Source: a bacterium
GTDB taxonomy: Bacteria > Patescibacteriota > Andersenbacteria > UBA10190
Reading direction: 5' to 3'
DNA length: 64,000 nt
Assembly: GCA_030698495.1 (NCBI GenBank)
Contig: JAUYKA010000033.1
Location: forward strand, 7,840 to 71,839
In this document: piece after piece, positions 2,258 through 27,215 of the stretch
Position numbering within the stretch: position 1 is the first letter of the stretch
Layout: every line of letters begins with the position of its first letter
The notes under the pieces: generated by a model
What the model was told of the DNA's origin: nothing
Seen by the model: only the letters and a program-made list of their open reading frames with translations
The model's database searches: none
Made by a program: the position numbers and the translations under genes

Positions 2258-2605
2258 TTATTTCCGTGAGTCAATTTGTTTGGCGGTAATATGGGCTTCT
2301 TTTTCTTGGTGAGTCATGTTTTTCACTTCATTTTCGTATTTTAGGTGAGTAATTTCGTGTTCAATTACCTGTTCCAGAAATTGCGGTGTTGCTTTTCGGG
2401 GACAAATATATATTTTATTGGGTAAGTAATAGCTACCCCATACTCCCCCGCTAATCCAGTAACAATCAATGTCTTCCGGAAACTGGTGTTTGATGGCAGG
2501 TTGTTTTAACACTAACCAGTTAAAAGCTATTTTTATTGTCTGCCAAGGATTAGGCCAAAATATCGCCAATTTTTGTTGTTTGTGCCAGCGTAAATGAAGC
2601 AACAA
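2258..2605 (-). CDS. Small HExxH zinc-metallopeptidase-like protein (HEITH motif; SprT/WLM/ImmA-like). The 5' end is embedded in repeat element B and has no ATG start (first in-frame start is TTG).
   Basis: 115-aa ORF containing ...ICPRKATPQFLEQVIEHEITHLK. The first 7 codons (LLLHLRW) lie inside the duplicated element. Confidence 0.4.
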   Translation of the reverse strand: MLLHLRWHKQQKLAIFWPNPWQTIKIAFNWLVLKQPAIKHQFPEDIDCYWISGGVWGSYYLPNKIYICPRKATPQFLEQVIEHEITHLKYENEVKNMTHQEKEAHITAKQIDSRK

Positions 2606-2830
2606 ATCCAGTTGTGTTTTTATATCTATGAAAAAATTGTAATGGTATTTAATCGTGCATTAAATGATAAAAGATTATTAAAGAAAAAACACGACATCCT
2701 TGTCGTGCTTGGGGGCGTTGGTGCACCGTGGCGCGTCCTTGCCGCGACATGGCGGAGGGGGACATTGGCACTTGCCGACGATCTTACCGTTCGTGATTCC
2801 TCTGGGTCGATTCGGTTTGTTTTAATTGAA
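2583..2830 (+). repeat. Repeat element B, copy 1 (about 250 bp, near-identical to 24420-24670). Contains an internal hairpin cacgaca-tcctt-tgtcgtg preceded by A6.
   Basis: Direct sequence comparison shows only 3 substitutions over about 250 bp. Confidence 0.8.
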
Positions 2831-2896
2831 TTTCAGTATACGTTCTTTTTAACTGCTGCTGGAGCCGTTATTGCGGGTGCTCTAGAAATAATTTTA

Positions 2897-3586
2897 TCAA
2901 TCAATGCTATTCAGATTCAAAGACTTAATGAAATCAGTTTCTGCTTTTGAAAGCTTAATCTTAAACACTTGTTGGAATGTTTTATCAAAATTTGGTGGGT
3001 AATAAATCCGATCGAGCTTCTTTAACAACGTTAAAAGCGTTTTGATGGAATAGCGTTTGATTAGGAAGTATACAAACAAACAGGCATACTTATAGGCTTC
3101 ATAATTCGCGTGCTTATCCCAGCCCTGTTGGGTGGAGATTTTCTCATAAAAACTCTTCTCAATATAGTAGTTAGCACTTGATGAGTAGTCTTGAACTTGG
3201 CCCGCTAAATACATAGCTAACCCCTCGTTAAGCCATAAAGGCACTGTCTTGCCTCTTGCCGGATGAGAAATGAAAATATGGGCGATCTCATGCTTTAATA
3301 TCGAAGTGAATTCAGCTCGGTTATGAGTACTATACTTTTCCATCGCATCTGGATGAAAAATATTTAATGTATTTTCTTGAGAAATGTTGCCCACTTCCCA
3401 TTCCTGGGTATGTCTCCCCAGTTGTTTATCAAAACTTTTTCGTGAAAAGTGTAGTCGAATAGTCATGGGTGCGTTGAGCTTAGTCTCAAATAGCTTTTGA
3501 AAATTTTTCGTAATAGAAAAAACTTCTTGCTCAAGAAGGTGCTTCTCTTCTCTGTTTCTAAATCCTAATATAGTTGTCTGTTGCAT
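2897..3586 (-). CDS. Peptidase MA-like (gluzincin) domain protein: HEIAH ... NEGLAMY.
   Basis: HExxH followed about 17 aa later by NExxAxY, the layout typical of the Peptidase_MA_2 family. Confidence 0.6.
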   Translation of the reverse strand: MQQTTILGFRNREEKHLLEQEVFSITKNFQKLFETKLNAPMTIRLHFSRKSFDKQLGRHTQEWEVGNISQENTLNIFHPDAMEKYSTHNRAEFTSILKHEIAHIFISHPARGKTVPLWLNEGLAMYLAGQVQDYSSSANYYIEKSFYEKISTQQGWDKHANYEAYKYACLFVYFLIKRYSIKTLLTLLKKLDRIYYPPNFDKTFQQVFKIKLSKAETDFIKSLNLNSID

Positions 3587-3766
3587 GAATTTGACTAAAT
3601 GAAAAGTGGTAAGGGCTACACACCTTTACCACTAAATCACACATCTGTCTGAAACACCAGTTACTTGTTGCAGCCAGTGTTTTGACATGATACGCACTGA
3701 CACGACTTGCAGCTTCGGCCTATCGCATCGTCCACGATCCTGGCAGGAGTGTTTGATTTACTCCTG

Positions 3767-4077
3767 TCATAGGCACGGTTCAATACCACGCTGGAATTCG
3801 TAAAGAACTCCTTCAGGGTTAACTTTGCCAAAGTTAGTAAAGACAATGACCGGAATTTTCTTGGTTTCTTCCTTATCTTCAATTCGCGCAGCACGTCTAA
3901 GCCGCTACGGTCTTATCAAGCAAGATAGCTTTAGGCTGTTTTTCGACTGTCTGCTTCACGCCTTCGTCGTCAGTTGAAACTGCCACTACCTCAAAACCCT
4001 TGCCTTGGAACTCCACCGTATACATTAGTATCTGGTCTGGATCGTCTTCGATGATAAGGATGAGGGGTTTATTGGGT
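3767..4077 (-). pseudogene. Frameshifted CheY-like response-regulator receiver domain.
   Basis: Three reading frames each carry a consecutive part of a receiver domain: KPLILIIEDDPDQILMYTVEFQGKGFEVVAVSTDDEGVKQTVEKQPKAILLD, then DVLRELK, then IEDKEETKKIPVIVFTNFGKVNPEGVLYEFQRGIEPCL. There are two frame changes within about 60 bp, and no in-frame ATG. Confidence 0.55.
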
Positions 4078-4177
4078 ATAGGTTCTTACCAATTTAGTGT
4101 AAACCGACTTGATTTTTACCGCAATTTACTTCAACTAACTTCATACAGCTCACAAAACACGATTATTAACTTATTAT

Positions 4178-4633
4178 CTAGATTTTACTTCTATAATCCT
4201 CGATTGCCGCTCTTAAAGCTTGATCGCCAAGCACACTGCAATGCACCTTTATTGCAGGCAACCCTCCCAAGCGAGACAAAATGCCCACAGGCCTTAACAT
4301 AAGAGCGTCGTCAATGTGCATACCTCCTTTTTCGGTCACAATAACACTCATCATGCTCGTACTAGCAATAGCCGATGCGCAACCAAATGTCTTCCACTTA
4401 CATTCGGCGATACGATTTTCCCTTACTACAATCCACACCTTCATAACGTCACCGCATTGCGGTGAACCGACTTGTCCTACACCTGAAGCCCGCCTAGCAA
4501 AATCATGCTCATCTTTGTCATTTGTAATGATATTCTGAGGATTGAAAAAATGAGATTTAACGGTATCCGTGTAAAACCAATCGAGACCATCTTCTGCGGC
4601 AGAGTTAACACTCATAAAACTTTTCTCTCTCAA
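4178..4633 (-). CDS. iscU: Fe-S cluster assembly scaffold, NifU/IscU-like.
   Basis: Conserved Cys-containing scaffold motifs (GSPQCGD, GCASAIAS, HCSVL). ATGA start/stop overlap with the upstream cysteine desulfurase. Confidence 0.8.
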   Translation of the reverse strand: MREKSFMSVNSAAEDGLDWFYTDTVKSHFFNPQNIITNDKDEHDFARRASGVGQVGSPQCGDVMKVWIVVRENRIAECKWKTFGCASAIASTSMMSVIVTEKGGMHIDDALMLRPVGILSRLGGLPAIKVHCSVLGDQALRAAIEDYRSKI

Positions 4634-5820
4634 ACATAAACATCCTTCAACTTAATATTTATAGGCGACATCTGACGCAACTTTTCTACGATACTCGGCA
4701 GTTTAGCTAGCAGGAAATCAAGGTGCTGTTGTTTGGTAAAACGACCTAGTGTAAATCGTATACTACCATGCACAGCGTCGCCGGAGACCCCTATGGCTGT
4801 TAAGACATGTGATGGTTTTAGTTTTTTGGAATTACACGCACTGCCTGTCGCAGCATATATTCCCAATTCATTCAGATGCAGTATAAGCGCTTCACCCTCA
4901 ATATCGAGAAAGGTAATATTCACGTTGTTAGGTAGCCTCTGTTTTACGTCTCCATTCAAAATAGTTTTTGGAATAGTCCGTATAACATCTTTAACAAGGT
5001 AATCTCTGAGAGTAGAGAGACGCTCATTTTCAGATGCACAATCAGCTTGCGCGATTTCAAGCGCTTTTGCTAATCCCACTATTCCGGCCACATTTTCCGT
5101 TCCACTACGAATCCCTCTTTCTTGGCCTCCCCCATGAAATATCGGCTGCAAAACAACTCCATTGCGAACATACAATAAACCAATACCCTTCGGTCCATAA
5201 ATCTTACTGCCATTAAGCGTCAGAAGATCAACCTGCAAGGTATTAACATTCAAATCGAGTACCCCGGCAGCTTGACAGGCATCGGTATGAAATAGAATTC
5301 TCCGTTTATGACATATCGCTCCAATTTCAGCGATGGGTTGGATTGTGCCAATCTCATTATTTGCATACATAACCGAAACTAGAATAGTGTCTGGTCGTAG
5401 GGCGGCCCTTATATCCTGCACATTAACTAAGCCACGCTGATCTGGTTTTATATACGTCACTTCAAAATTATTATGTTCCAAAAAACGGCATGTTTCTAAA
5501 ACAGAGACGTGCTCAATCGCTGTGGTAATGATGTGTCCGCTCATTTTTTGACGAGCTACCCCTTGCAAAGCCAAGTTAATACTTTCTGTGCCGCCGCTTG
5601 TAAACACTATTTCACTTAATTGGCACCGTAATATTGTAGCAATTGTTTCTCGTGCCTTCGTGATTGCTCGATAAGCTTCTAGCCCCTTAAAATGCAAGCT
5701 ACCCGGATTGCCATAAAAGACGTTTTCAAGAGGTCGTATAGCGTCTTGCACTTCAGGGTGCAACGGCGTAGCAGCGGCATAGTCTAGATATATATCTTCC
5801 ACATAACTACCATATACCAA
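4630..5820 (-). CDS. iscS: Cysteine desulfurase (IscS/NifS family, PLP-dependent).
   Basis: Aminotransferase class V motifs and the active-site region ATGSACNS. Operon partner of iscU. Confidence 0.85.
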   Translation of the reverse strand: MVYGSYVEDIYLDYAAATPLHPEVQDAIRPLENVFYGNPGSLHFKGLEAYRAITKARETIATILRCQLSEIVFTSGGTESINLALQGVARQKMSGHIITTAIEHVSVLETCRFLEHNNFEVTYIKPDQRGLVNVQDIRAALRPDTILVSVMYANNEIGTIQPIAEIGAICHKRRILFHTDACQAAGVLDLNVNTLQVDLLTLNGSKIYGPKGIGLLYVRNGVVLQPIFHGGGQERGIRSGTENVAGIVGLAKALEIAQADCASENERLSTLRDYLVKDVIRTIPKTILNGDVKQRLPNNVNITFLDIEGEALILHLNELGIYAATGSACNSKKLKPSHVLTAIGVSGDAVHGSIRFTLGRFTKQQHLDFLLAKLPSIVEKLRQMSPINIKLKDVYV

Positions 5821-5886
5821 GTTGCCAACAAGGCAAACGCTTGATTACGATGGTATTATATTTTGATTAATATCGTAGATATAAGG

Positions 5887-8692: not shown

Positions 8693-9472
8693 TTACTTAT
8701 TGCTATATGTCCTTATCATATCTTGTGCGATTTTGATTTTTAAATTCTTATCTCTTTTATAGAATATGGAGCCTTTTGCTTGCTTTTCATCGCAATGCCT
8801 AACTTTTACCGCCCAGTTTTCGAAAAAAGCGATAGGAATGTTATTCTTAACAAATTCATTTGAAATAACATCCTCATAATTGCAATCATCTGTATACTTG
8901 GAAAAATTATAGATTCCATTGCTATGTGCAAAATCTAAAAACCTTTGATTGTGATAAACCAAAAAATGAGATGACACTCTATTAACGTCCCTAACATTTT
9001 TTTCTAGCGGACGACCAATATCTTCCAACTTCCACACCCAACAATCATAATCAATTACACTGGAAATTAAACATGTTTCTGGATGTCTATCAAAAAAAGC
9101 AGATATCTCCCCCAAGGCGTCATAATCATTTTTTTCCAAAACCGCAATAACATCACTTTCAATCTCTATCGTGTAGTCGCTTTTACCAGAAAGAGCATGA
9201 AAGTGAGCATTATTAGACGGATCTCCAGGACAAATAAAGTTCTTGTTCGCTTTATTTCGTATCCTTACTTCGTCAATATTGAGTTTGTCACGAAAGTGAA
9301 TAATTTGTTCTATAGAGCTGTCGGTTGCTCCGTCAACTTGCGCAATGACTTCGTATTTACAGCTTGAATTTTTAGTTAATGCATCTACGCTGATAGGCAA
9401 TGTTATATTCCAAAGATCAAGCTCATTTGCCACAATGGATATTATTTGAAATTTTGGTCGGTCATTCAACAT
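8693..9472 (-). CDS. GT2-like glycosyltransferase (GT-A fold), last gene of the AT-rich operon.
   Basis: N-terminal IISIV...EVIAQVDGATDSS resembles the DxD/DGSTD region of family-2 glycosyltransferases. Very low GC. Confidence 0.4.
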   Translation of the reverse strand: MLNDRPKFQIISIVANELDLWNITLPISVDALTKNSSCKYEVIAQVDGATDSSIEQIIHFRDKLNIDEVRIRNKANKNFICPGDPSNNAHFHALSGKSDYTIEIESDVIAVLEKNDYDALGEISAFFDRHPETCLISSVIDYDCWVWKLEDIGRPLEKNVRDVNRVSSHFLVYHNQRFLDFAHSNGIYNFSKYTDDCNYEDVISNEFVKNNIPIAFFENWAVKVRHCDEKQAKGSIFYKRDKNLKIKIAQDMIRTYSNK

Positions 9473-11400
9473 ACCGAAGAATCATAAACAGCATAATCTC
9501 CATCTTCGCTAAATAAGCTGGAGCTACTGTTTTTAATCCACAACGGAAAATATCTTTTATTTCTTTCACCAAAAACTACCGCTCGAGAAGGCATTGGATT
9601 GACTGTTGATTCTTCCCCATTTTTATTAAATGCAAGAATTCCAATAATCTCAGGCACAAGCAAACAAGATCTGTTTTTATCATTGATTGTTATATTAAAC
9701 CCGATTTCTTGCGTTCCTACTGGAATGGGGAATTCTAAGACATTTTCTTCTTTCACTATGCCAGTTGTATCGTGAGAAGCAGTGTCTTTAAATGGCACTT
9801 CTATAAAACCAGTATTTTGTTTGTGCTCATGAACAACTAAATCTCTTTTCTTTCTAAGCGTATATTTTTCATACTCAGCAACGTCTTTATAGAAACAAAT
9901 CTCATCCCACTGATATTTATGTTTGACACTCTTATCGATAAGAATATTTATTTCATCCAAATGATCACCCACAACTCTCACTCTCAACTTATGATTGCTA
10001 AAAGAAAGAAAGGTTGTATGTTCCTTCATCGTTACACAAACTTCTTCTTGTCCAATGCGGCCTATGATCCTTGGGGAAAACGCACCCCTCCCTTGGGGCG
10101 GGACTGCATTAATCGCACCGGAAAAATATGGATTTCCCAATTTTTCTAAAACACCTCTTCTTTTTTCTATTAGCTCAGATATAAAGTAAGACTGTAGTTT
10201 AATAAAATGTTTTATGAGTTGGCATTTTACACCGTCCGGTTTTTTAACAGTCTTATTCACAAGCCACCCCTGATAATAACAACCGCCGCCGCATAAATAT
10301 CTTGCCCAACATTTATTACATGGCTTCCTATTCTCAACGGTTTGGTTCATAAAGAGATCCTTTGCGGCCTCACTCACGCCTTCTTCTATACTGCCAATAT
10401 CTTGCCCTTTAGCCCCTACGAAATGAGCGCAAGGATACAATTTCCCATCCCAATCAACATATAATCCTGATTTTCCACAATTGCATCGATATCTCAATAT
10501 CGATCTATTTAATATTCTATAAAAATATCTGAAAAAATAATCCTCTGGGTTTATTGCTTTTAGATACTGCGCAAGCTCATCGTCAGAACTAGCGAGTAGA
10601 AAATCTATGAATTGGCTATATGCTTGTTTAAACTTCGGCAGATTTTCCTCATTCAAAGCAAAGCTTTCTTCGTGGCCGCTATTGACCGGCTTCATGTAAA
10701 TCGATGATTTTATGCCTAGATCAAAAATGTGTTTAAAATTTTTAGAGATATCCAATGTCTCCGCTGTTATAACAGAACAAGCGCCAATGTCGATTTTTTC
10801 CCTTATGGCAAATTGAATTAATTGAGCCAGATCATTATAAGTGCCCTTTTTATTCTTATATCTTCTAAATTTATCATGGTCTTCTTGCACTCCGTCGATA
10901 CTTATGTCCATTGGACTGCCTAAACGTTTTACCATTTTATCGGGAGTAAATATCAAACCGTTAGACATATTAGCTCCCACCCAAACAGTCTTATTGAATT
11001 TTTTACATAGCTTTTTAATGTGGTCTTTTAAGATTTTGTGATACCCCTCAGCGATAAAAGGTTCTCCGGCAACACCAAAATCAATTCTGGCAAACCTCTG
11101 ATCTTCCGATAAGCTCTTAAAAAACAAATCGATTGCCTCTATCGCGGTTCTCATGGTCATCATTTTCGTATTATTTTCCAGTTCTCGTTTCCGAAATACA
11201 CAATACCGACAATCCAAATTACATGACATTGATATACATAATTGAAGCTGTGGGCTTATTTCCTTGAATTCTTTTTTCCACTTAGAAGGCTTACTGTTGG
11301 GTAAATCTGGAATGCTTACACCAAAATCATCTATGCAAAAAACAGAGGATGTGTTTTCATCTATTGCGAATTTTTTATTCTTATGTGTAAATTTTTTCAT
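9466..11400 (-). CDS. Radical SAM enzyme with a SPASM domain and a roughly 230-aa C-terminal extension of unknown function (644 aa).
   Basis: CNLDCRYC (Cx3Cx2C) near the N-terminus. SPASM-type Cys clusters CNCGKSG...C and CNKCWARYLCGGGCYYQG. Confidence 0.8.
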   Translation of the reverse strand: MKKFTHKNKKFAIDENTSSVFCIDDFGVSIPDLPNSKPSKWKKEFKEISPQLQLCISMSCNLDCRYCVFRKRELENNTKMMTMRTAIEAIDLFFKSLSEDQRFARIDFGVAGEPFIAEGYHKILKDHIKKLCKKFNKTVWVGANMSNGLIFTPDKMVKRLGSPMDISIDGVQEDHDKFRRYKNKKGTYNDLAQLIQFAIREKIDIGACSVITAETLDISKNFKHIFDLGIKSSIYMKPVNSGHEESFALNEENLPKFKQAYSQFIDFLLASSDDELAQYLKAINPEDYFFRYFYRILNRSILRYRCNCGKSGLYVDWDGKLYPCAHFVGAKGQDIGSIEEGVSEAAKDLFMNQTVENRKPCNKCWARYLCGGGCYYQGWLVNKTVKKPDGVKCQLIKHFIKLQSYFISELIEKRRGVLEKLGNPYFSGAINAVPPQGRGAFSPRIIGRIGQEEVCVTMKEHTTFLSFSNHKLRVRVVGDHLDEINILIDKSVKHKYQWDEICFYKDVAEYEKYTLRKKRDLVVHEHKQNTGFIEVPFKDTASHDTTGIVKEENVLEFPIPVGTQEIGFNITINDKNRSCLLVPEIIGILAFNKNGEESTVNPMPSRAVVFGERNKRYFPLWIKNSSSSLFSEDGDYAVYDSSVC

Positions 11401-11407
11401 GTCTTAT

Positions 11408-13084
11408 TCAAATTACCTTATATCTAGTTTTTATATCCTGCAAAGCGCCGGCTAGTAATTCATATTTTCCTAATCCCTCAATCTTACTATTTCTAATACA
11501 AATTAAGTCATTTATAATACTCTTCAGTTCCAACCTCGCTTTGTCTGGACATATTTTTAGTTTCTCAAAAACCTCCGGAGAGGCAACCTCTTGGTTATTC
11601 ATAAGCGCTATCCTAGTAACTAGAAACCTCGCCTCTTCAAATAATGATTTAAAAGTTGATATTGTTCTTGTTTTCTCATATTCTGTTTGTTGCTTCCATA
11701 ACGCATCCTTGTAAACTATCCTTTTGTATCTCTCTAAATACTCAAGAAACAATTTGTTATTTCCAGAAACCAATCTTAACTCAAATACCTCAAAAAGATC
11801 CCTTGATTCACCATTTACTACTACGTCTTTTTCTACAGGCCTACCATGAGTCCCCTCGGATCTAACTCCGAGATACGCAAGTAATTCACATGTCAAATTT
11901 TCAATTGGAATAACTGGATAAGTTTTATTGCCTTTAAACATAACAATTTCAAAATCAAGATCGCTTTCCTTGGTTAAAACAAATTCTCCGTATGACCCCC
12001 TGGCTATAATATTTATCTCTGCATAATCTATGTCGACTAACCCACATACTGCTTTAACGATGCTTCTTAGAATGTCGTCATAAATTTCAGCGCTACAGTC
12101 TTTCTGTGCTTCTTTAATTGTATTGATCATTTTCTTATACCCCGCTTCATCGCCCAGAGCGACGATTAGGCTTGCTAAATGAAACTTTGCCTGGTTTCCT
12201 TTTTTAACAGCCATGATTTTTTTCGTTATGCCTAATAATACCCTGAGATCGTCAATACTATTTTGTCTTTTTTTGTACATCAGTAGCGTCCACGTGAAGG
12301 ATATTCTTGCGGAAACTAATTCATCTACAAAATGTCCAACCTCGAATGGTCTCGAATCTTTGTTGATTAATGGTTTTTCTGCATCAATAGTCAATTGGTC
12401 AAAATAATTGAAAAATTTATTTCTGTCTTGATATGCCATGGTTTTCCATCCAACCTTTTCAACTCTGTCCATCTTTCTAGCTTTATTGGAAAAACAATAC
12501 TTGCGTTCAAGAAGTTTGACATATTCCTCGACCAAATCTTCTTCAAAGGATTGAAATAAATTGATTTTCAAAAATAATAGATACCTTCGATCTATACCCG
12601 AATCTTCAACCTTAAATAATTTCTCAAAATCTATTAAGAAGTATGTTTTATTCAAGTAAAACATATTACGTAGCGCTAACCCCCTCCAAAGATAACCGTT
12701 TTGAAGAAAATGATTGTTTATACGAACCACATCTTCAAAAAGCAACTCCTTGTTCATCAAAGGATTCTGGTTCAATGGAAGCCCTAAATCCTCAAAAATA
12801 AAGAAACTATCTGCCCTGCTAATAGGCATTAAGACCTTAGCATCTGTTACATTATTCTTACGCAATAGCTGGTCTGCTAACTTTAGATTTTCTATTTCTT
12901 TCTGTTTGCATTTTTTAATGATATAACTTTTGTTTTTAATCCTAGAATATATTTTAATTACATCATTTTTAAATGGATTAACATTTTCTAGTTCAAGAAC
13001 TCGTAAATCATTTTCTCTTGTTATAATGCCTTTCCTTTTTAATAACTTGATAATTGCACTGTTCATAAAATTTAACTCCAGCAA
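11408..13084 (-). CDS. Two-domain protein: N-terminal aminoglycoside/choline-kinase-like fold (IDFE Brenner-type motif, non-canonical catalytic loop) followed by a Pol-beta-type nucleotidyltransferase domain (GS-x10-DLDFE).
   Basis: Motifs YLWRGLALRNMFY...FLIDFEKLF and ARGSYGEFVLTKESDLDFEIV read from the translation. Confidence 0.5.
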   Translation of the reverse strand: MLELNFMNSAIIKLLKRKGIITRENDLRVLELENVNPFKNDVIKIYSRIKNKSYIIKKCKQKEIENLKLADQLLRKNNVTDAKVLMPISRADSFFIFEDLGLPLNQNPLMNKELLFEDVVRINNHFLQNGYLWRGLALRNMFYLNKTYFLIDFEKLFKVEDSGIDRRYLLFLKINLFQSFEEDLVEEYVKLLERKYCFSNKARKMDRVEKVGWKTMAYQDRNKFFNYFDQLTIDAEKPLINKDSRPFEVGHFVDELVSARISFTWTLLMYKKRQNSIDDLRVLLGITKKIMAVKKGNQAKFHLASLIVALGDEAGYKKMINTIKEAQKDCSAEIYDDILRSIVKAVCGLVDIDYAEINIIARGSYGEFVLTKESDLDFEIVMFKGNKTYPVIPIENLTCELLAYLGVRSEGTHGRPVEKDVVVNGESRDLFEVFELRLVSGNNKLFLEYLERYKRIVYKDALWKQQTEYEKTRTISTFKSLFEEARFLVTRIALMNNQEVASPEVFEKLKICPDKARLELKSIINDLICIRNSKIEGLGKYELLAGALQDIKTRYKVI

Positions 13085-14733
13085 GCTGGACTATTACCCC
13101 CGGAAGTGCAAACTTCCGTTTCTTTGGCCCCACCTAAGTTTATCAGACTGTCTATCTCATTATTATACTTATTGATAGTCTCCTCTATGGCTATAGCCAA
13201 TAGTTCATTAGACTGCCACAGACTTTCCTTATCAGTTGAAGGATTACCAATAGTTGTACCAATCACTGTATATGTAATTTTTTCATCATTAGTAATTTTC
13301 CGATTAAAATCATTCAACTTAAACTCATCCATGCAGACATTACCTGCTTTATACAATCGGTCAGAAACCATACTTGTATACTTGCTCACCAAAGAACTGA
13401 TTGCGTTTTTGTCCTTAACGCGCTTAATATCATCTAGTCTTCTTTTGGGAAATACCACAAAAGAAATTCTATAAAAATCTAGATCGTTAAAAACTATAAC
13501 ATTTTCATTTTTCATTAAAATTTGATACCAATAATTTGCTAAATACTGCCTCCGTTCAATTAACTTACCGATAGCTCTCAATCCGATCCCCTTGATTGTT
13601 AACCAGAGCTTCAGAGACTCAAAGCCTCTTGACCCCATGAATGGCGTAGCTAAACCTAAATCCAAATACTCTTTAGCATTAACCTTATCGGGGTACCTAG
13701 AAAAAACATTTGTGGAATTAGGATTTTTAAACAAAACATAACTGCTAGAGTAGGGAATAAACAATGACTTGTGAGGATCTAACGACACTGAGTCTGCGTT
13801 CTCTATGCCTTTTAATAGGTGTTTGTATTTTTCTGAAAACAAAAAACTACCGCCATGGCATGCATCAACGTGCAACCAGACATTATACCGCTGACACATG
13901 CGAGAGATAGCTTCCAGATCATCTAAACCGCTAGTCCTACAATTTCCCGCGACCGCCACGACAAAAAATGGGATTTGATCTTTTGCAGAATTCTCAATAG
14001 CGTTTTTAATATTCAGCACCGAGGATGTGTAATTTTTTCCTGGCTCAGCCCAGATAATCGAATTAGATCCTAGTCCCAACCATGAGCAAGCGCTTTTATA
14101 GGAATAATGCTCAATACCCCTAGTCATTACGATGACTGGTTTTTGCTCAACAGAATGAATGCCCCGTTCCTTGATTGAAGGAAATCTATTATTTAACGCA
14201 GTCAGTAAGGCCACATAGTTAGAAAGATTGCCCCCCGTAGTCCACATACCACCAACCTTAGAAAGGGAATTAATCTCTGGCAGTGGTATAGTTTGATATC
14301 CTATTAATTCTCTTAACCAGTTTATAAGCTGGATTTCTATTATTGTTCCTATAGGAGCACTCCGATCAAAAGCTATCTGATTTTGATTTAAAAACTGAGA
14401 ATATATTGCTCCACCAATTGCATATTTCGAATTTCCGCCATCGGGAAAAGCAAGATATTTCTTATCAGCTTGAAGAATCGAGTATTCACCGATCATGTCT
14501 AATAATTTATCCAGATCATTGTCTGAAATTGAATTCTGCGGAATATGTTCGTCAAGTAAAAAGCGCAGCTCTTTGGGGCTCATATAATTAAACACTTTAT
14601 TTTTTCGTAATTTACCCGAATAGAAGTCCAGGCCTTTCCGAATAAACTTATGAAAAAAATCTTCCTCCAATAATGCTTTTTCGGAAGGATCTAGCAAGTA
14701 TTGTGAAACAAATTGGGAGTCTATTTTTCTCAT
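13072..14733 (-). CDS. Group II PLP-dependent amino-acid decarboxylase.
   Basis: MWTTGGNLSNYVAL, HVDACHGGSF and SLDPHKSLF (PLP-lysine) motifs. 553 aa. Confidence 0.75.
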   Translation of the reverse strand: MRKIDSQFVSQYLLDPSEKALLEEDFFHKFIRKGLDFYSGKLRKNKVFNYMSPKELRFLLDEHIPQNSISDNDLDKLLDMIGEYSILQADKKYLAFPDGGNSKYAIGGAIYSQFLNQNQIAFDRSAPIGTIIEIQLINWLRELIGYQTIPLPEINSLSKVGGMWTTGGNLSNYVALLTALNNRFPSIKERGIHSVEQKPVIVMTRGIEHYSYKSACSWLGLGSNSIIWAEPGKNYTSSVLNIKNAIENSAKDQIPFFVVAVAGNCRTSGLDDLEAISRMCQRYNVWLHVDACHGGSFLFSEKYKHLLKGIENADSVSLDPHKSLFIPYSSSYVLFKNPNSTNVFSRYPDKVNAKEYLDLGLATPFMGSRGFESLKLWLTIKGIGLRAIGKLIERRQYLANYWYQILMKNENVIVFNDLDFYRISFVVFPKRRLDDIKRVKDKNAISSLVSKYTSMVSDRLYKAGNVCMDEFKLNDFNRKITNDEKITYTVIGTTIGNPSTDKESLWQSNELLAIAIEETINKYNNEIDSLINLGGAKETEVCTSGGNSPACWS

Positions 14734-14815
14734 AATAATTCATCGAAACTGTATTGACGTTGGACTTACACAAAAAACAGTTTGCACGTAAACATAGCCA
14801 ATGATTCAATATATG

Positions 14816-15913
14816 TCAATAATATGTTTCGCCAAAAGAGATGTTATCCCCCTCTATCGATATTAAGGCTGCCCTTTGCGGATCAATAATTGGCGTTGTC
14901 ATATACATGTCTCGACCATTATATCGACCACTAGTTATCCTAGCAGCCATACGACAACCACCCTCGCATAACATCAAGGCGTTGCACGTTCGACATTCTT
15001 CTGGAAGCATTTTTGGCGATGCCCAAGATTTCATCCTCAGCCAAGTACTCAAAAATTTATCTGGTAAAACGTTGCCAAAGACAACGTCAGAATGGACGCA
15101 TGGTCTCATCGTTCCCGCTGATGAAACAACACAAGACGATACTGCGGCTGAGCAAATTCTGTTTCCGAAGAAACGAACAAACTCTGCTTCTTCGCGCTCA
15201 CCAAAAAGACACCTAGCGACCGGTTCAAGAACATCAACTTTGAGGGACAACTCCTTGTCTATGCGCATCAACTCTCTTAAGCAACGCTTACACTCTACCC
15301 CCGAAAGACAAAGGGGTATATTCGCTCTACATGACGGTAACATGGGGCCTGCACAGAAAGTGCTAACCCCGAGACGCTTTAAGGCCAGAGCTGTATCAAA
15401 TATGAAGTCTAGATTCATTTTTGATACGACCATATTAACGGCAACAGAAAGGTTAACCGCCAATAGACTTTCTATGCCCTTGATAGTTCGGCCGTAATTA
15501 CCACCAGCCCCGGCAATAGTGTTGTGTATGTCCTCTGGACCAAGCACTGAAACCAAGACATGCTTTAAGCCTTGCTCCTTTAGCGCTCGCGCATCTTTGC
15601 ATTGAATTAGAGCCGCATTTGTGTTAAGTCCCGTTTCAATTCCATATGACGTTGCAAGAGCAATGAGCTTAAGCAAGATTTCTTTTCGAAGCATCGGTTC
15701 GCCACCCGTAAACGTTACTAAGCCCACTTTAGCATCTCGCAACTGATCAATGACCATGCTATAGTCATTCATCCCTAATTCGTCTTGGTCTTTTACGAGA
15801 CTATGCCTCCAATAGTTGTAGCAGTGTCTGCATTCTTGATTGCACTGCGAAGTCAATTCTATTTGTACATCTAATGGCGCTGAGAGCCTTTCCATTGCTT
15901 GTCCTCCAAACAA
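14816..15913 (-). CDS. Radical SAM/SPASM-domain maturase-like enzyme (365 aa), first gene of the operon.
   Basis: CNQECRHC radical-SAM motif. C-terminal CSAAVSSC...C and CRTCNALMLCEGGCRMAA SPASM clusters. Confidence 0.8.
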   Translation of the reverse strand: MFGGQAMERLSAPLDVQIELTSQCNQECRHCYNYWRHSLVKDQDELGMNDYSMVIDQLRDAKVGLVTFTGGEPMLRKEILLKLIALATSYGIETGLNTNAALIQCKDARALKEQGLKHVLVSVLGPEDIHNTIAGAGGNYGRTIKGIESLLAVNLSVAVNMVVSKMNLDFIFDTALALKRLGVSTFCAGPMLPSCRANIPLCLSGVECKRCLRELMRIDKELSLKVDVLEPVARCLFGEREEAEFVRFFGNRICSAAVSSCVVSSAGTMRPCVHSDVVFGNVLPDKFLSTWLRMKSWASPKMLPEECRTCNALMLCEGGCRMAARITSGRYNGRDMYMTTPIIDPQRAALISIEGDNISFGETYY

Positions 15914-16087
15914 ATAAACAAGTTTTTAAAAGAACAGCAAGTAAGTGTACAACTATTTTTTACTAATGCAATCAGTAGAACCAACAATATGTCAATTTGC
16001 ATTGGCATACATAGTCATTCTGTTTCCTACCTGCAAACCTAACGATGTGACTAGCCATGCCATCTTAATTTGGTTTGTTATAGATCG

Positions 16088-16163
16088 TCTGAACAATGCC
16101 GACGAGTGGGAGTCGCAGGTGCTGGATTTTGATCACGGGATTTTGCTGGCGGTGCGGGGGTAA
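16088..16163 (+). repeat. 68-bp repeat (gccgacgagtgggagtcgcaggtgctggattttgatcacgggattttgctggcggtgcgggggtaa), copy 2.
   Basis: Direct repeat of 22282-22355, with 3 substitutions. Confidence 0.8.
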
Positions 16164-16309
16164 GGACTACTTTTAAAAACAAGATCGAACTCGAGCTGCT
16201 GCTGTTTGACTAAATGTGACTGTTTGCAGATAATGGAAAGTGCTGTAAACTCTAGTGTTTGGGGTTATTGTTGACTGTTCTTCACAACAACTGATAAAGG
16301 GGTACGGCA

Positions 16310-17380
16310 ATGAGCTGCACAGCTGAAGCGACCGAGGAGGTTGGCCATCACGAGACAAAACGAGACTATTTGCTGGTGATGGACCTGCCGGAGATGGTGC
16401 ACGGTCTGCGCCTGACCGGGCTGAACGTTCCGCCGCGAAACCATGACATCTTTGCCAAGATCAAGGAAGATCTGGCGAAGCTGTTCGGTGTAGTGATGCC
16501 CAAGTACGTCGGTGAAAGCGAGATCACCCTGAAGGTGATCGATATGCAAGAGCTGTCTGATCAGATACTGGCCAAGGCGGTGCAGATGGTCGACAGCATG
16601 AAGCAAGGCTACATTGTGAGCACTTGCATGGATATCGCAAGCATTGTGCTTCACGGCAAAGTCTTCGAAGCTAACCGGCTGATCGACAATACTGGCTCGG
16701 TATTGGGTATCGGACCTAGGCCGGGGCACTATAGCCTGCGGAAGCAGGTGGAAAGCGTGATCACGGACGCGGCTGGTCAACCCATTATCCTGGTGGAAGA
16801 CGGGTTGTTTACCGGGACGACGATGTACGAGGTGATCCGCGAGTTTCAGGCGCGCGGTGCGGAAGTCGAAGCGGTGGTGCTTGGCTTCGCGTTTCCGAAA
16901 GCGAAAGATAAGCTGGCGTCGCTTGCCATGGCACCGAGTGTTCATACGGTCGAGACGGTTCATAATCCGCTCGACTGGGTGCCCGATCACGACTTCTTCC
17001 CGTTCGTGCCCAATTGCGGCCGGGTACTGGGAACTCGTATCAATGGCCAGGTTCATCCGATTTACTCGCATCTGGGGTTCTCGTACAGCGTGCCCTATCT
17101 GTACGGATTCTGCCCCATGGGCGATTGGATCGGCCTGTCGTTGTCGGAGGCACAAGCGAGGGAGCTGACTTGGAACATCCTTCATCTGGACTGCGAGCTG
17201 TTCAGGGTCATCGATGCGATGAACGGTGGAAAAGGCTTCAAGCTCCATGAGTTGGGCAACGCCAGGCCACGCGTTTCCATCCCCTACCGCGTCAATCAGA
17301 AGCATCTGCCGGAGAACGAGAACGATATGACTATCGGCAGGCATCTGGCGGAAGAGACGATGCGCGCCAGTCCGCACTAG
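16310..17380 (+). CDS. Phosphoribosyltransferase-domain protein with a C-terminal extension.
   Basis: PRPP-binding motif ILVEDGLFTGTT. GC-rich. The antisense ORF 16265..17389 is judged an artefact. Confidence 0.55.
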   Translation: MSCTAEATEEVGHHETKRDYLLVMDLPEMVHGLRLTGLNVPPRNHDIFAKIKEDLAKLFGVVMPKYVGESEITLKVIDMQELSDQILAKAVQMVDSMKQGYIVSTCMDIASIVLHGKVFEANRLIDNTGSVLGIGPRPGHYSLRKQVESVITDAAGQPIILVEDGLFTGTTMYEVIREFQARGAEVEAVVLGFAFPKAKDKLASLAMAPSVHTVETVHNPLDWVPDHDFFPFVPNCGRVLGTRINGQVHPIYSHLGFSYSVPYLYGFCPMGDWIGLSLSEAQARELTWNILHLDCELFRVIDAMNGGKGFKLHELGNARPRVSIPYRVNQKHLPENENDMTIGRHLAEETMRASPH

Positions 17381-17389
17381 CGACAACAC

Positions 17390-22281: not shown

Positions 22282-22355
22282 AATGGCAATGCCGACGAAT
22301 GGGAATCGCAGGTGCTGGACTTTGATCACGGGATTTTGCTGGCGGTGCGGGGGTA
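22282..22355 (+). repeat. 68-bp repeat, copy 3.
   Basis: Direct repeat of 16088-16163. Confidence 0.8.
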
Positions 22356-22361
22356 AATCAA

Positions 22362-23270: not shown

Positions 23271-23855
23271 ATGAAACAAAGCGGAAGTTCCAAGAAAACA
23301 ATCAGACGCTGGCGGATTAAAAGCTCGAAATATATTTTAAGAGATCGTTGGTTGAAAGTTCGCGCCGATGAATGTATTACCGATGATGGTGTTGTTATTT
23401 CGCCATATTATGTTCTTGAATATCCGGATTGGATTCACTTGGTCGTGCTGAACGATAAAGATGAAATCATGATAGCCCGGCAATATCGGCACGCTCTCGG
23501 TAAAATTAATTATGAGTTGCCTTGCGGTACTATTGATGCGACTGATAAAACGCCAATAGCGGCCGCTAAAAGAGAGTTATTAGAGGAAACCGGTTTCGCC
23601 GGAAAGTTTATAAAGGTTGCTAAAATGTCCGCAAACCCCGCAACACACGCCAATTTTATTCATATTTTTCTAGTCACCGATCCGGTAAAGAAATCGCGTC
23701 CGCAAGAAGACCCAAAAGAAGTGCTTGATTTTGAGTTTATGAGTCTTAAACGGGTTCTTGATTTAATAGACCGGGGCAAATTTAGTCAGGCTTTGCATTT
23801 GAATAGTATCGTGCTAGCTATGCGCAAGGCAGGTAAAACTACTTTGAGTTTGTAA
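23271..23855 (+). CDS. NUDIX hydrolase.
   Basis: Nudix box GTIDATDKTPIAAAKRELLEETGF. Confidence 0.8.
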   Translation: MKQSGSSKKTIRRWRIKSSKYILRDRWLKVRADECITDDGVVISPYYVLEYPDWIHLVVLNDKDEIMIARQYRHALGKINYELPCGTIDATDKTPIAAAKRELLEETGFAGKFIKVAKMSANPATHANFIHIFLVTDPVKKSRPQEDPKEVLDFEFMSLKRVLDLIDRGKFSQALHLNSIVLAMRKAGKTTLSL

Positions 23856-23863
23856 TACAGACT

Positions 23864-24256
23864 ATGAAAAAGAGCGTAAATACAATTATGCAAAATGGCG
23901 AGGGGAAGTATTTGCTGCAGATGCGGGACGGGGTAGAGGGTATTTGTAATCCACTGAAGTGGAATTTCTTTGGCGGCGGTGTTGTTGGTGGAGAGAAGCC
24001 GGTTGCGGCCGCGGCGCGGGAGACGCAGGAGGAGTTGGGAATTGAGGTAAAACAGAATGATTTTGAATTATTGGGTGAGCTGCGGCCGCGGGATGATCGG
24101 TTGGTGTATGTGGTTCGATATAAGCCGAAATTGGAGTGGAGTGACTTTACGGTAAAAGAAGGCGCGGGAGCCGGGTTTTTTGCCCAAAACGAGCTGCTGC
24201 GAATCGATATTACCGACGTTACGCGAAGGCTGGCGGAGAAGTTTTTGCGAAATTAG
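23864..24256 (+). CDS. NUDIX hydrolase.
   Basis: Nudix box GGGVVGGEKPVAAAARETQEELGI. Confidence 0.8.
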   Translation: MKKSVNTIMQNGEGKYLLQMRDGVEGICNPLKWNFFGGGVVGGEKPVAAAARETQEELGIEVKQNDFELLGELRPRDDRLVYVVRYKPKLEWSDFTVKEGAGAGFFAQNELLRIDITDVTRRLAEKFLRN

Positions 24257-24311
24257 CAAAGAATAAGCACTGCAAGCTAGGTTTAACCTATGTTGCAGTT
24301 CTTCTTTTGAG

Positions 24312-24670
24312 AGTTGGATAATTTCTGTTTCGCCGGATGCCGGCTCTTCGGACCGGAATGACATAATGCGTTTGGCAACAAGTTTGGCTTGGTATAGACT
24401 AAAATTGCATTTTTGTTTCTGGTGCCAGCGTAAATGAAGCAACAAATCCAGTTGTGTTTTTATATCTATGAAAAAATTGTAATGGTATTTAATCATGCAT
24501 TAAATGATAAAAGATTATTAAAGAAAAAACACGACATCCTTGTCGTGCTTGGGGGCGTTGGTTCACCGTGGCGTGTCCTTGCCGCGACATGGCGGAGGGG
24601 GACATTGGCACTTGCCGACGATCTTACCGTTCGTGATTCCTCTGGGTCGATGTTTGGGCACAATCTTTGT
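24312..24670 (+). repeat. Composite repeat: element A (24312-24420) joined to element B (24420-24670).
   Basis: The A part recurs at 27107-27215 and the B part at 2583-2830. Confidence 0.8.
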
Positions 24671-24814
24671 GCTCATTCTGGTGGTTAGTACCCTCCTTTC
24701 AACGAGGGTTGTTTTGTTAAGACTTAAAGTACGCTTCGGCCGGCGTCCGGTAATTAAGGGATTGGTGCAGCCGCTCGTGGTTGTAGAAGCGGCTACACTA
24801 TACGGGAGTCTCAT

Positions 24815-25585
24815 ATGTATCTGAACTTAGGCGCCCCACTAGCTTTCTTTCGTGTAAAGGCTAGAATGTTAGTGGGTTTTATTGCTATGAAATATCCGAT
24901 TATTAACTTTAAATTTGATCAATCGCTAGACCAAGACGTTGCTTGGATGTTTTACAATAATCAAGAATTCGGAGGCACCCATTTTTGGAGCGAAAGAGCC
25001 CTGGTATATCATCCGGTTCTTCAAAACATGGATAGGGTTAAGGGCCCCAAAAAATTTCTTAATCAATATATTGCTGATTTTTACAGTTCTCACGCTAATG
25101 AGCTTAAGCTATTAGGCGATGATATTGTCGAGGGTTTTCAGCAAGTACAAGATAGCTACTTTTCATTAGTTGATAAAATTTTTAAGGGTTATCCTTGGCC
25201 AAGAAAAGAATTTACCGGCTGTTTTTCCATATTTGATTTTTGCCCTCGCTTTCTTGATTGGGGTGGGTTTCAAGTCAGTCTTTTTGATAAAAAAGAACAT
25301 CAGTTATATGTGATTTTTCACGAGATGGTGCACTTTATTTTTTATGATTACGCGCAAATAAATTTCCCTGACACGCTAGGACAGATGGATACAGACGAAG
25401 GTAAGTTTTGGGATTTGGCAGAAGTATTTAATGTGGTAGTACAAAGCTTGGATGATTTTAAGCGATTGCAGGGCAAAGTTGACTCTATGGGATACCCTGA
25501 CCATAAATCATTGATACTGAAAGGCAAAAATTTATGGGCAAAGAATCCAGATGTGCGTCAATGGATTTTGGATATGATGGCATAG
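24815..25585 (+). CDS. Hypothetical protein with an HExxH motif (IFHEMVHFIF).
   Basis: 256-aa ORF with GGGAG RBS. No family recognised beyond the putative zinc-binding motif. Confidence 0.45.
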   Translation: MYLNLGAPLAFFRVKARMLVGFIAMKYPIINFKFDQSLDQDVAWMFYNNQEFGGTHFWSERALVYHPVLQNMDRVKGPKKFLNQYIADFYSSHANELKLLGDDIVEGFQQVQDSYFSLVDKIFKGYPWPRKEFTGCFSIFDFCPRFLDWGGFQVSLFDKKEHQLYVIFHEMVHFIFYDYAQINFPDTLGQMDTDEGKFWDLAEVFNVVVQSLDDFKRLQGKVDSMGYPDHKSLILKGKNLWAKNPDVRQWILDMMA

Positions 25586-25639
25586 CATTACACTCGCCGA
25601 TAACGCGGTGGATTACGGCCCCCTGATGCAAGACTTTAT

Positions 25640-25730
25640 CGACCGGCTTTACTAAAGAAGAGTTGCTAAAGCTGGATATTACGGACGCTACGCGGATGCT
25701 GGTGAAGAAATATTTGTAGGATTTGCGGCA
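25640..25730 (+). pseudogene. Remnant of a NUDIX-hydrolase C-terminus.
   Basis: Translates to TGFTKEELLKLDITDATRMLVKKYL*, homologous to the C-terminus (AGFFAQNELLRIDITDVTRRLAEKFL) of the NUDIX gene at 23864..24256. No upstream body. Confidence 0.55.
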
Positions 25731-25812
25731 TAAAGCACTCCTTTACTTTTTTGTGGCAATATGATAATATTAGAACTGTAATCTAGGTTTAAACTATACT
25801 ACAGTTCTAATT

Positions 25813-26397
25813 ATGAATAAAGGAGACTATATTTCAGCAATATTACGGGCCAAGGGGACGGTTTTTACGGCTAGTGAGATAATGCTGATATGGAACGAGA
25901 CAGGAAGTGCCGCGGCCAGAGCAAGGATAAATTATTATGCTAGGAACGGCGATATTTACCGAATTCGACGCGGTATTTATGCAAAAGATAAGGATTATAA
26001 CCGCCGCGAGCTGGCTACTAAAGTTTATATTCCCTCTTATGTTAGTTTCGAGACGGTGCTGGCAGAAGCGGGTATAATTTCTCAATTTTACAAGCAGATT
26101 TTTGTTGCTTCATATTTGTCGCGTGAATTGGAAATTGGTGGACAAAAATATGCATACAAGCATATTAAAGACGAAATTCTTACTAATCCGTCCGGTATTG
26201 TTAATGACAGCACTTTTTCGACAGCTTCCGCAGAACGGGCTTTTTTGGATGTACTTTATTTAAATGTGGATTATCATTTTGATAACCTGCGCCCGTTGAA
26301 TTGGGAAAGGGTGTTTGAATTGTTGCCTATTTATGGCGGCATACGCCGCATGGAAGAAGTAGTGAGAAAAATTTACAAATCGTATCAGACGGAATAA
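25813..26397 (+). CDS. AbiEi-like antitoxin/transcriptional regulator (type IV TA / abortive infection).
   Basis: N-terminal wHTH-like region. Immediately upstream, same strand, of a DUF1814/AbiEii nucleotidyltransferase. Confidence 0.5.
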   Translation: MNKGDYISAILRAKGTVFTASEIMLIWNETGSAAARARINYYARNGDIYRIRRGIYAKDKDYNRRELATKVYIPSYVSFETVLAEAGIISQFYKQIFVASYLSRELEIGGQKYAYKHIKDEILTNPSGIVNDSTFSTASAERAFLDVLYLNVDYHFDNLRPLNWERVFELLPIYGGIRRMEEVVRKIYKSYQTE

Positions 26398-26401
26398 AAA
26401 T

Positions 26402-27103
26402 ATGTCTCTTGATATTGCCATTCATAGAAGCGTGTTAATAAAGATACTGAAGGATATTTATACGGATTCCTCTTTGGGCCCCAGTTTGGGTTTTAAGGGG
26501 GGTACGGCGGTATATTTGTTTTATAATCTAAATCGCTTTTCGGTTGATTTGGATTTTGATTTGCTGACTGTTGATGAAGAAGGTTATGTTTTTGAGCGTG
26601 TGAAGAAAATTCTAAAAAAGTACGGGTTGGTAAAAGATGCGGTGAAAAAAAGATATAACTTGTTTTTTATGATGGCTTACGATGATAAAGTCCCCGGAGC
26701 ACAGAATATAAAAGTGGAGATTAACCGACGGGATTTCGGCTCAAAGTATGAGTCAAAAAGTTATTTGGGGATTCCGGTAAAGGTAATGGTGCGGGAAGAT
26801 ATGGCGGCACACAAGTTGGTGGCGATGCTGGAGCGCATTGGCCGGACTAATCGTGATATTTATGATGTTTTTTTCTTTTTGCAAAACGATTGGCCGATAA
26901 ATAAATCAATAGTGGAGGCTCGCACCGGGCTTGGATGGAATGAATATCTGAAAAAGGTGATTGATAAATTAGAGAAGTTGGCGAATCGCAACATTTTGGC
27001 CGGCATGGGCGAATTACTGGACGAAAAGCAAAAAGCATGGGTTAAGGAGAATTTAAAAAGAGAGGTCGTTTTTCTATTGAAGTTGAAGCTGGAGAAGGAG
27101 TAA
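26402..27103 (+). CDS. AbiEii/AbiGii-family nucleotidyltransferase toxin (DUF1814).
   Basis: GFKGGTAVYLFYNLNRFSVDLDFD motif. Confidence 0.65.
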   Translation: MSLDIAIHRSVLIKILKDIYTDSSLGPSLGFKGGTAVYLFYNLNRFSVDLDFDLLTVDEEGYVFERVKKILKKYGLVKDAVKKRYNLFFMMAYDDKVPGAQNIKVEINRRDFGSKYESKSYLGIPVKVMVREDMAAHKLVAMLERIGRTNRDIYDVFFFLQNDWPINKSIVEARTGLGWNEYLKKVIDKLEKLANRNILAGMGELLDEKQKAWVKENLKREVVFLLKLKLEKE

Positions 27104-27106
27104 AAT

Positions 27107-27215
27107 TTTCTGTTTCGCCGGATGCCGGCTCTTCTGACCGGAATGACATAATGAGTTTGGCTAAACGTTTGGCTTGTTATAGACTTTAATTGCATTTTTG
27201 TTTCTTTGACAATTT
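27107..27215 (+). repeat. Repeat element A, second copy, ending in TTGACA just upstream of the lectin gene.
   Basis: About 90% identical to 24312-24420. Confidence 0.75.

Follow-up and report, generated by a model that had tools for sequence, protein, structure and literature searches.

In lantibiotic and bacteriocin operons, e.g. that of nisA, a transcription terminator follows the precursor gene. Campbell-type single-crossover integration of an internal gene fragment results in two complementary truncated copies that share an internal overlap, and small genomes of the candidate phyla radiation (CPR) are usually thought to be streamlined and repeat-poor. The locus described here lies in a 64,000-nt stretch of the genome of an uncultured, Candidatus Andersenbacteria-like CPR bacterium (assembly GCA_030698495.1, contig JAUYKA010000033.1, positions 7,840 to 71,839; in the following "the window", with positions counted from its first nucleotide), in which one sequence, repeat B, occurs in two near-identical copies (B1 and B2). 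B2 is joined to one of two copies (A1) of another repeated sequence, element A, whose other copy (A2) precedes a lectin gene. A preliminary description of this DNA had proposed a mobile element resembling a miniature inverted-repeat transposable element (MITE), or a promoter/leader cassette spliced onto unrelated genes. Judged from its reading frames, B is instead a duplicated piece of two neighbouring genes and comprises most of a small Cys-rich peptide gene together with its terminator, followed by the first codons of a mini zinc-peptidase gene. We regard it as probable that B goes back to a recent direct segmental duplication of the junction in a two-gene module, and that the module is now split with a 230-bp overlap amidst relics of illegitimate recombination, rather than forming part of a transposable A+B element.

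The closest described systems with respect to gene content are radical S-adenosylmethionine (radical SAM)/SPASM clusters for ribosomally synthesized and post-translationally modified peptides (RiPPs), such as those of the ranthipeptide/SCIFF and sactipeptide types. Relatives of our locus share with them a SPASM radical SAM gene, an overlapping or abutting short gene for a Cys-rich peptide and then a peptidase gene; unlike them, the peptides and the HExxH protein match no NCBIfam or Pfam model, and in the window the cognate radical SAM gene is absent and the module split. The terminator compares with those after lantibiotic or bacteriocin precursor genes such as nisA, as hairpin and T-run stand directly past a short precursor ORF (open reading frame) and before a downstream processing gene, with a conserved position and a varying sequence. 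The peptidase recalls the minigluzincins (proabylysin/selecase), DUF2268 and SprT-like proteins in its size (family members of about 125–140 aa) and its invariant HExxH motif with a downstream Glu, but all matches to such minimal zinc metallopeptidases are sub-threshold and the HExxH proteins make up a separate small family of 63 representatives. As regards the repeat itself, insertion-duplication relics of the Campbell type are alike in having direct repeats, complementary 5'- and 3'-truncated copies, a shared internal segment and ends inside codons. They are unlike our locus in that 21.6 kb of housekeeping chromosome, and not a plasmid or island, lies between the copies, the fusion partner A1 is itself an older duplicate, and no integrase or att site is present.

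The strict core of B comprises 230 nt (2582–2811 for B1, 24422–24651 for B2; both copies in direct orientation and with their genes on the minus strand) and shows exactly three substitutions in an ungapped alignment with flanks, corresponding to 98.7% identity. Repeat finding and blastn extended the match to 2569–2811 versus 24409–24651, including a left-hand 9-nt match, ATTTTTGTT (2569–2577/24409–24417), which lies beyond a 4-nt mismatch at the left end of the core and equals the tail of element A. The near-identity of the two loci with three substitutions had been recognized before, but the right-hand ends then given (2830 and 24670) overshoot the core by 19 nt, and over both repeats the end coordinates had been set 10–19 nt too far out. 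Further copies of A or B were not found in the 64-kb window by blastn at word size 7, leaving two of each. On the minus strand, B consists of the peptide ORF starting at codon 9, then the terminator, an AT-rich spacer of about 30 nt between terminator and HExxH start, and codons 1–25 of the HExxH gene; about 80% of B is protein-coding, and its ends lie inside codons of both genes. In B1, a 5'-truncated peptide ORF, terminator and spacer lead into codons 1–25 of a complete HExxH gene, whereas B2 holds the body of the peptide ORF, terminator, spacer and HExxH codons 1–25 only. The alignments thus bear out that B is a duplicated segment carrying the HExxH 5' region. The three substitutions (2655 G/24495 A, 2723 G/24563 T and 2734 C/24574 T) fall in the start codon of the HExxH gene, in the stop codon of the peptide ORF (TGA in B2, TGC in B1) and in one peptide codon (Thr/Ala). 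For three changes placed at random in 230 nt, a rough, post-hoc estimate gives a chance of about 1e-3 that two of them strike the start and the stop codon.

The arrangement within B is that of unrelated genomes. Six unrelated metagenome loci (L005, L006, L010, L014, L015 and L018) keep the order of the module, usually behind a radical SAM/SPASM gene: L005, L006, L014 and L018 show the order radical SAM/SPASM gene, Cys-rich peptide gene, hairpin with T-run, HExxH gene, and the sequence of peptide C-terminus, hairpin with T-run and HExxH gene is present at the contig ends of L010 and L015. The hairpin and T-run at the equivalent position, with differing stem sequences, was identified by folding in L005, L006, L014 and L015; it is visible in the sequence of L018, and for L010, which was not folded, it was seen by sequence inspection only. 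In L005 and L006, the HExxH gene is preceded by a short ORF with homology to the GC-rich half of B, and this ORF in turn by the SPASM-type C-terminus of a radical SAM protein. The L005 fragment of the latter reaches 27.7 bits for the SPASM domain TIGR04085 (cut-off 27), and a SPASM-domain radical SAM gene is present beside the peptide gene in the L005, L014 and L018 loci. Other family members (L011, L012, L013 with a NUDIX gene upstream, and L019) lack the peptide upstream of the HExxH gene. B is hence the native upstream neighbourhood of the HExxH gene, with an order kept in six loci, which speaks against a cassette spliced onto unrelated genes. In the window, queries with L005, L006 and P0005 detected no homologue of the cognate enzyme, and a transposase remnant stands at its expected place. 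The peptides gave no match to the named NCBIfam RiPP systems, and the radical SAM fragments scored 13–20 bits versus maturase cut-offs of 265–855. On these comparisons, B descends from a radical SAM RiPP cassette; because the defining maturase is absent in the window and the module is split, we do not file it as a functional member of this class.

The peptide ORF is intact in B2 (24563–24676, minus strand; 37 codons, MSTKIVPKHRPRGITNGKIVGKCQCPPPPCRGKDTPR up to the stop), with the first eight codons outside the repeat, and encodes a candidate RiPP-type precursor. When compared with the window by tblastn, the L006 peptide matched it with 53% identity over 32 aa (E = 3e-9) and the L005 peptide with 40% over 40 aa (E = 1e-7). 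RPxG and C.CP.PPCRG (KC.CP.PPCRG) are motifs common to the window, L005 and L006 peptides; with L014 and L018 included, the peptides combine the RPxG motif with C.CP.PPCRG or KCQC cores, i.e. a conserved leader motif with a Cys-rich core. Neither the B2 peptide nor those of the relatives matched any NCBIfam or Pfam model. Among the codons outside the repeat, STKIVPK still resembles TTNVTPL of L006, so that B2 is seen to hold the native peptide 5' end. The fragment in B1 (2678–2811, minus strand) has no start codon; homology begins inside codon 9, and with TGC in place of the TGA stop the frame stays open across the terminator as far as a TAA. The change from TGA to TGC is probably derived in B1, since the peptide stops before the hairpin in all relatives. 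Between peptide ORF and HExxH start, both copies carry an intrinsic terminator on the strand of the upstream gene, a GC-containing hairpin with a 10-bp stem followed by T6 (2687–2710 in B1; 24527–24550 in B2, z = −2.5; both minus strand), confirming the earlier interpretation of a hairpin plus A6 as a T-tailed minus-strand terminator. By analogy to lantibiotic operons, such a terminator past the precursor gene would act in the native module as a leaky stop, so that mRNA for the peptide would far exceed that for the peptidase. The gene upstream of B1 (2897–3586, minus strand) encodes a Peptidase_MA_2 protein that likewise has an HExxH motif; the first minus-strand terminator after its stop codon is that of B1, 185 nt downstream.

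The second gene of the module was listed as the ORF 2258–2605 (minus strand), which has no ATG and takes its 5' codons from B; this earlier observation was confirmed. Comparison with homologues extends the gene to 132 codons (2258–2656), with the family start position, 2654–2656, reading ACG and a TTG at 2605 being the first usable start in the ORF list. Upstream of this TTG, the minus-strand translation of B can be aligned to the N-termini (MIKYHYNF...) of P0003 and P0004 from the protein search, and the tblastx matches from L005, L010, L012 and L013 all start at window position 2653. A profile search among 1.84 billion proteins retrieved the 63 family representatives, profile position 1 being residue 1 in most of them. 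In an alignment of 36 sequences, Met stands at the position of the B2 ATG (24494–24496) and the B1 ACG in 28 family members, and the N-terminus M-I-x-Y-x-Y at this codon is found in the five closest homologues as well as in these 28 of 36. Since 28 of 36 family members begin with Met at this very codon, the ATG in B2 is, by homology, the ancestral start codon, which B1 has lost to ACG. The G/A difference between the copies had been noticed previously, yet it had been taken for a change creating an ATG, and the homologues show the opposite direction. The annotation of the gene is corrected accordingly: its true start position is 2656, with the start codon lost.

The HExxH body in B1 (to 2258) is complete, with all invariant residues intact. 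H100, E101, H104 and E120 are invariant in the 36 sequences, the Glu being located 16 residues past the second His, as expected for the third ligand of a zincin. A confident AlphaFold (AF2) model based on the 36 sequences (pLDDT, the predicted local distance difference test, of 94) places residues 2–5 in a strand, so that a protein begun at the TTG (residue 18) would miss a structural element. Foldseek matches to the PDB were weak (E ≥ 0.45) and nearly all to zinc peptidases, including the minigluzincins 4jiu and 4qhg; Pfam matches to DUF2268, SprT-like and M48 remained below the gathering scores (DUF2268 with E = 7e-4 for P0004). By its gene position, the protein is a candidate leader peptidase. 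In B2, only a 5' fragment of the gene is present (24422–24496, minus strand; ATG plus 24 codons, MIKYHYNFFIDIKTQLDLLLHLRWH). Its frame is joined after codon 25 to the antisense of A1, resulting in a chimeric ORF of 142 aa (24068–24496).

The two copies are thus truncated in a complementary manner: in B2, the peptide start and leader codons are kept, but the peptidase gene breaks off past codon 25 in a fusion to A1, whereas B1 keeps the whole peptidase body, with the peptide gene cut before codon 9. We envisage an ancestral module that would have comprised, on the minus strand, the gene for the Cys-rich peptide as RiPP-type precursor, the hairpin/T terminator, the AT-rich spacer and the gene for the HExxH...E peptidase of about 130 aa. 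B1 carries the degenerative changes, the conserved ATG having turned into ACG and, as it seems, the peptide stop TGA into TGC. A1, the older copy, would have become the fusion partner of B2, perhaps by illegitimate recombination at the shared ATTTTTGTT; the occurrence of this sequence inside the HExxH coding sequence (2569–2577) is identical to the A tails (24409–24417, 27194–27202) and may represent the microhomology for joining A1 to B2. At least two illegitimate recombination events would have taken place, an older one for A (92% identity) and a recent one for B (98.7%), and the joints are best conceived as recombination by-products in a scrambled region with a transposase remnant, a type IV toxin-antitoxin pair and gene fragments. 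A single recent tandem duplication running from B to A, which the preliminary description had named as the outcome at odds with its own proposal, was tried as well and is excluded, since comparison of the two intervals revealed nothing in common beyond a NUDIX-end match of 42 nt and a hairpin match of 48 nt.

Several points weigh against this reconstruction. No strain with an unsplit module was found. The 9-nt microhomology ATTTTTGTT is not significant alone, 86 of 500 shuffles scoring as well, and the differing ages of the A1/A2 (92%) and B1/B2 (98.7%) pairs require at least two events instead of one. L005 has a long Cys-containing tail after CRG that resembles the B1 read-through product, which makes the direction of the TGA/TGC change uncertain. 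Despite its ACG, the B1 HExxH gene might be translated from an ATT or TTG instead, and the promoter assigned to A (see below) is an eye reading, a consensus scan giving no more sites than in shuffles. Finally, the absence of an exact B 22-mer elsewhere pertains to representative genomes only, and the copy number of A and B to the 64-kb window only.

Element A (24322–24420 = 27107–27205, plus strand) spans 99 nt with 8 mismatches (92% identity) and contains GCCGGATGCCGGC; its occurrence before B and, alone, before the lectin gene had been described correctly, its length of about 105 nt had not. A1 is joined directly to B2 (junction 24420/24422). A2 is found in an apparently native setting between the AbiEii stop codon (27103) and the ATG of the lectin gene (27230), and is identical in L002 and L003, from two further assemblies. 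From this comparison, A is a copied intergenic stretch, with A2 before the lectin gene as the working copy and A1 as an older copy (92%). A2 contains the repeats GTTTGGC-N5-GTTTGGC, 12 nt apart, and TGnTATAGA; a 16-nt A core, TTTGGyTTGkTATAGA, recurs once more at 16069–16084, and TGnTATAGA is conserved in the three copies of the core. A2 may well carry the lectin promoter, with TGnTATAGA as an extended −10 element, read by eye, behind the two GTTTGGC repeats. The TTGACA with which A had been said to end, 20 bp before the lectin start, is indeed present (27206–27211), but just outside the repeat and 18 nt before the ATG; at this distance, and with the Shine-Dalgarno sequence GGAGGAAG lying in between, it cannot be the −35 element of the lectin gene. 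In A1, a σ70 consensus scan identified TTGGCA-17-TAGACT (9/12); the region holds 14 such sites versus 8.2 ± 2.9 in shuffles. Any promoter in A1 would be directed antisense into B2, and a terminator-like hairpin with a T-rich tail lies on the plus strand at 24690–24709. Single-strand folding of A, on both strands, revealed no significant structure, the z-scores of A and B folds ranging from −0.6 to −2.3. The lectin gene itself (27230–29086, plus strand) encodes two C-type lectin domains and, in a CPR-type genome, a PEP-CTERM sorting signal (25 bits versus a cut-off of 20.7); it contains an internal 120-nt repeat (27486–27605/27924–28043, 76%).

The notion that A+B, or A and B apart, represent a non-autonomous mobile element or a portable promoter-leader cassette inserting before genes can draw on their presence at two to three loci, on contigs of other assemblies that break in or near B, on the transposase remnant adjoining B2 and on the recurrence of the 16-nt A core at 16069–16084. 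B also shares with MITEs and other non-autonomous elements that it is short, repeated and at first sight intergenic-looking, beside a transposase remnant. Yet there are only two copies of each repeat in 64 kb, the content and order of B are those of a conserved native two-gene arrangement, syntenic with unrelated genomes, and it begins and ends within codons of the two genes. When A1+B2, B1 and A2 were searched together with their flanks for inverted repeats, only the terminator hairpin and small internal pairs emerged, and no terminal inverted repeats. Alignments with flanks showed no target-site duplications, the flanks differing and short direct repeats being absent from the ends. None of the hallmarks of a MITE (terminal inverted repeats, target-site duplication, many dispersed copies, lack of coding capacity) is thus displayed. 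An exact B 22-mer had no match in 185,579 representative genomes, A+B had none in plasmid and phage collections, and two matches of an A-core 18-mer in viral contigs extend over 18 nt only and are attributable to chance. With neither inverted repeats nor target duplications nor further copies, the mobile or MITE-like element put forward initially appears extremely unlikely. Of the alternatives weighed here, we hold it least probable that the GC-rich half of B is a duplicated gene for a small structured RNA, or a cis-regulatory RNA, on the minus strand and ending at the terminator. In favour of this reading, the half stands out as GC-rich from the AT-rich DNA around it and has an intrinsic terminator behind it, and the surrounding 201-nt minus-strand stretch folds at z = −2.3; this z-score is modest, however, and no Rfam match was obtained even at E = 10. 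The covariance-model search of B suggested earlier was negative: a gathering scan of the window with Rfam 15 yielded two tRNAs only, and at E ≤ 10 the region 24200–24900 gave chance-level matches only. Instead, this half encodes the conserved Cys-rich peptide, and what it has in common with L005, L006 and L018 is the amino-acid sequence, with the Cys/Pro motif kept and many third codon positions differing.

The fusion of A1 and B2 might also be in use, with an A1 promoter driving a plus-strand unit through B2, either an antisense RNA directed at the peptide gene and the HExxH 5' end or an annotated 84-aa ORF (24434–24688), that ends at the hairpin 24690–24709. The promoter-like TTGGCA-17-TAGACT in A1, the terminator-like plus-strand hairpin with its T-rich tail just past B2 and the calling of the 84-aa ORF in two metagenome-assembled genomes (MAGs) would fit such a unit. 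We nevertheless consider it unlikely, as a search of 5.8 billion proteins gave no homologue of the ORF outside this species, the ORF runs antisense to two conserved genes, and promoter-like sites are no commoner than in shuffles. A 72-aa plus-strand ORF of B, which forms one cluster with two members from this species only among the same proteins, was treated as spurious. It is very unlikely, too, that the split module exists in no single cell, i.e. that the contig is chimeric at the repeat or that the three substitutions are strain mixtures. While the source is a MAG and other assemblies are fragmented here, the independent MAG contig L001, from a different assembly, is 100% identical over hairpin pal1, A1, B2 (itself 100% identical) and the transposase remnant, and so reproduces exactly both B2 junctions, that with A1 and that from the peptide start to the transposase remnant. 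The independent assembly L004 reproduces the right junction of B1, its contig coming from the peptidase-MA side and ending 30 nt inside B1, and the left junction of B1 is ordinary gene continuity.

Regarded as a repeat, B is an ordinary product of illegitimate recombination; mildly novel are the cassette without a Pfam or NCBIfam model and the very recent complementary decay in a CPR genome. The split module exemplifies how a near-identical "intergenic" repeat, here a duplicated gene junction, can pass for a mobile promoter element, and it documents a very recent gene-fragment duplication with complementary decay in a small Candidatus Andersenbacteria-like genome. We found no description of the peptide-terminator-peptidase cassette in the literature. 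This compact cassette, which has a radical SAM partner in relatives and is covered by neither Pfam nor NCBIfam models, might prove a new and tractable RiPP system. In a more daring version, to which we assign a rather low probability, the module would belong to an undescribed RiPP family of the CPR/Patescibacteria type, made up of a radical SAM/SPASM enzyme, a Cys-rich peptide with an RPxG leader, a leaky terminator and a dedicated 130-aa HExxH...E peptidase; the orphan precursor in B2 would then still be expressed, with one of the two other radical SAM/SPASM enzymes of the window maturing it in trans and the A1 promoter exerting antisense control. These two genes, 7 and 12 kb away, are unrelated to the module. 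They lie in a low-GC block (8693–15913, minus strand; GC content 0.33–0.38 versus 0.46 for the window) and encode a 644-aa protein that is PapB/SCIFF-maturase-like (sub-threshold) and a 365-aa protein; a PLP (pyridoxal 5'-phosphate)-dependent decarboxylase and two large ORFs without any family accompany them. This block possibly represents a second peptide-modification cluster without relation to the module.

The 21.6 kb between B1 and B2 contain the genes for ArgRS, NifS/NifU, HisRS and tRNA-His and the two radical SAM/SPASM genes; given ArgRS, HisRS, tRNA-His and NifS/NifU, this interval is ordinary chromosome and not a mobile insert. Around B2, the window has the end of a NUDIX gene, hairpin pal1, A1, B2, the peptide start and an rve-type transposase remnant, followed by a 256-aa ORF without family, a second NUDIX-end fragment, hairpin pal2, the AbiEi/AbiEii genes, A2 and the lectin gene. 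The remnant (24720–24797, minus strand; 26 codons, CSRFYNHERLHQSLNYRTPAEAYFKS up to the stop) represents the transposase C-terminus and lies directly upstream, in the minus-strand sense, of the B2 peptide gene. It was found by six-frame translation and Pfam and corresponds to positions 52–67 of the 67 in the rve_3 profile (E = 5.6e-5), an integrase core; its 23.3 bits fall under the cut-off of 26.5 since only the last 16 profile positions remain. No other part of the insertion sequence is visible, and the start of the 256-aa ORF (24815–25585) abuts the remnant.

The two strong hairpins of this region are related (24257–24312, z = −3.9; 25762–25820, z = −4.5), and both follow a NUDIX gene end, the fragment 25648–25716 being similar to 24179–24247. 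The second stands directly before the AbiEi start codon (25813), while the first has no AbiE genes behind it. AbiEi is described as binding inverted repeats in its own promoter (PMC7319586), and by this analogy the hairpin 25762–25820 is probably the AbiEi operator.

A further repeat family, D4, which adds to the signs of a scrambled neighbourhood, is represented by 16094–16163 and 22287–22356 (70 nt, three substitutions) and by a degenerate 45-nt copy with a 1-nt insertion (2208–2252). In one frame, D4 reads as a gene end, NADEWESQVLDFDHGILLAVRG up to the stop; all three substitutions are synonymous in this frame, and homology stops at the TAA. The other frame holds a small Cys/Trp-rich ORF beginning with MPTSGSRRCWILITGFCWRCGGK, and here homology starts 2 nt before the ATG. 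Peptides of neither frame matched Pfam. A distance of 5 nt separates D4 copies from the C39-peptidase gene and from the HExxH gene, in both cases at the 3' end; the A core TTTGGTTTGTTATAGA stands in front of D4a.

Some features of the window are apart from the repeats. GC skew is negative from 1 to 16 kb, except for the 2–3 kb bin, and positive from 16 kb onward, with the cumulative minimum at about 16 kb, where the coding strand of the genes switches; no dnaA was seen there, and the sign change near 16 kb may reflect only gene strand bias. Two long ORFs overlap on opposite strands (16265–17389, minus; 16310–17380, plus); the plus-strand ORF alone has a weak Pfam match (phosphoribosyltransferase, E = 6e-6), and GC skew favours the plus strand too. 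An AT-rich motif composed of AATTTTC-like heptads, AATTTTCAATTTTCAATTTCCAATTTTCA, occurs three times (36795–36826, 42523–42554 and 46636–46667).

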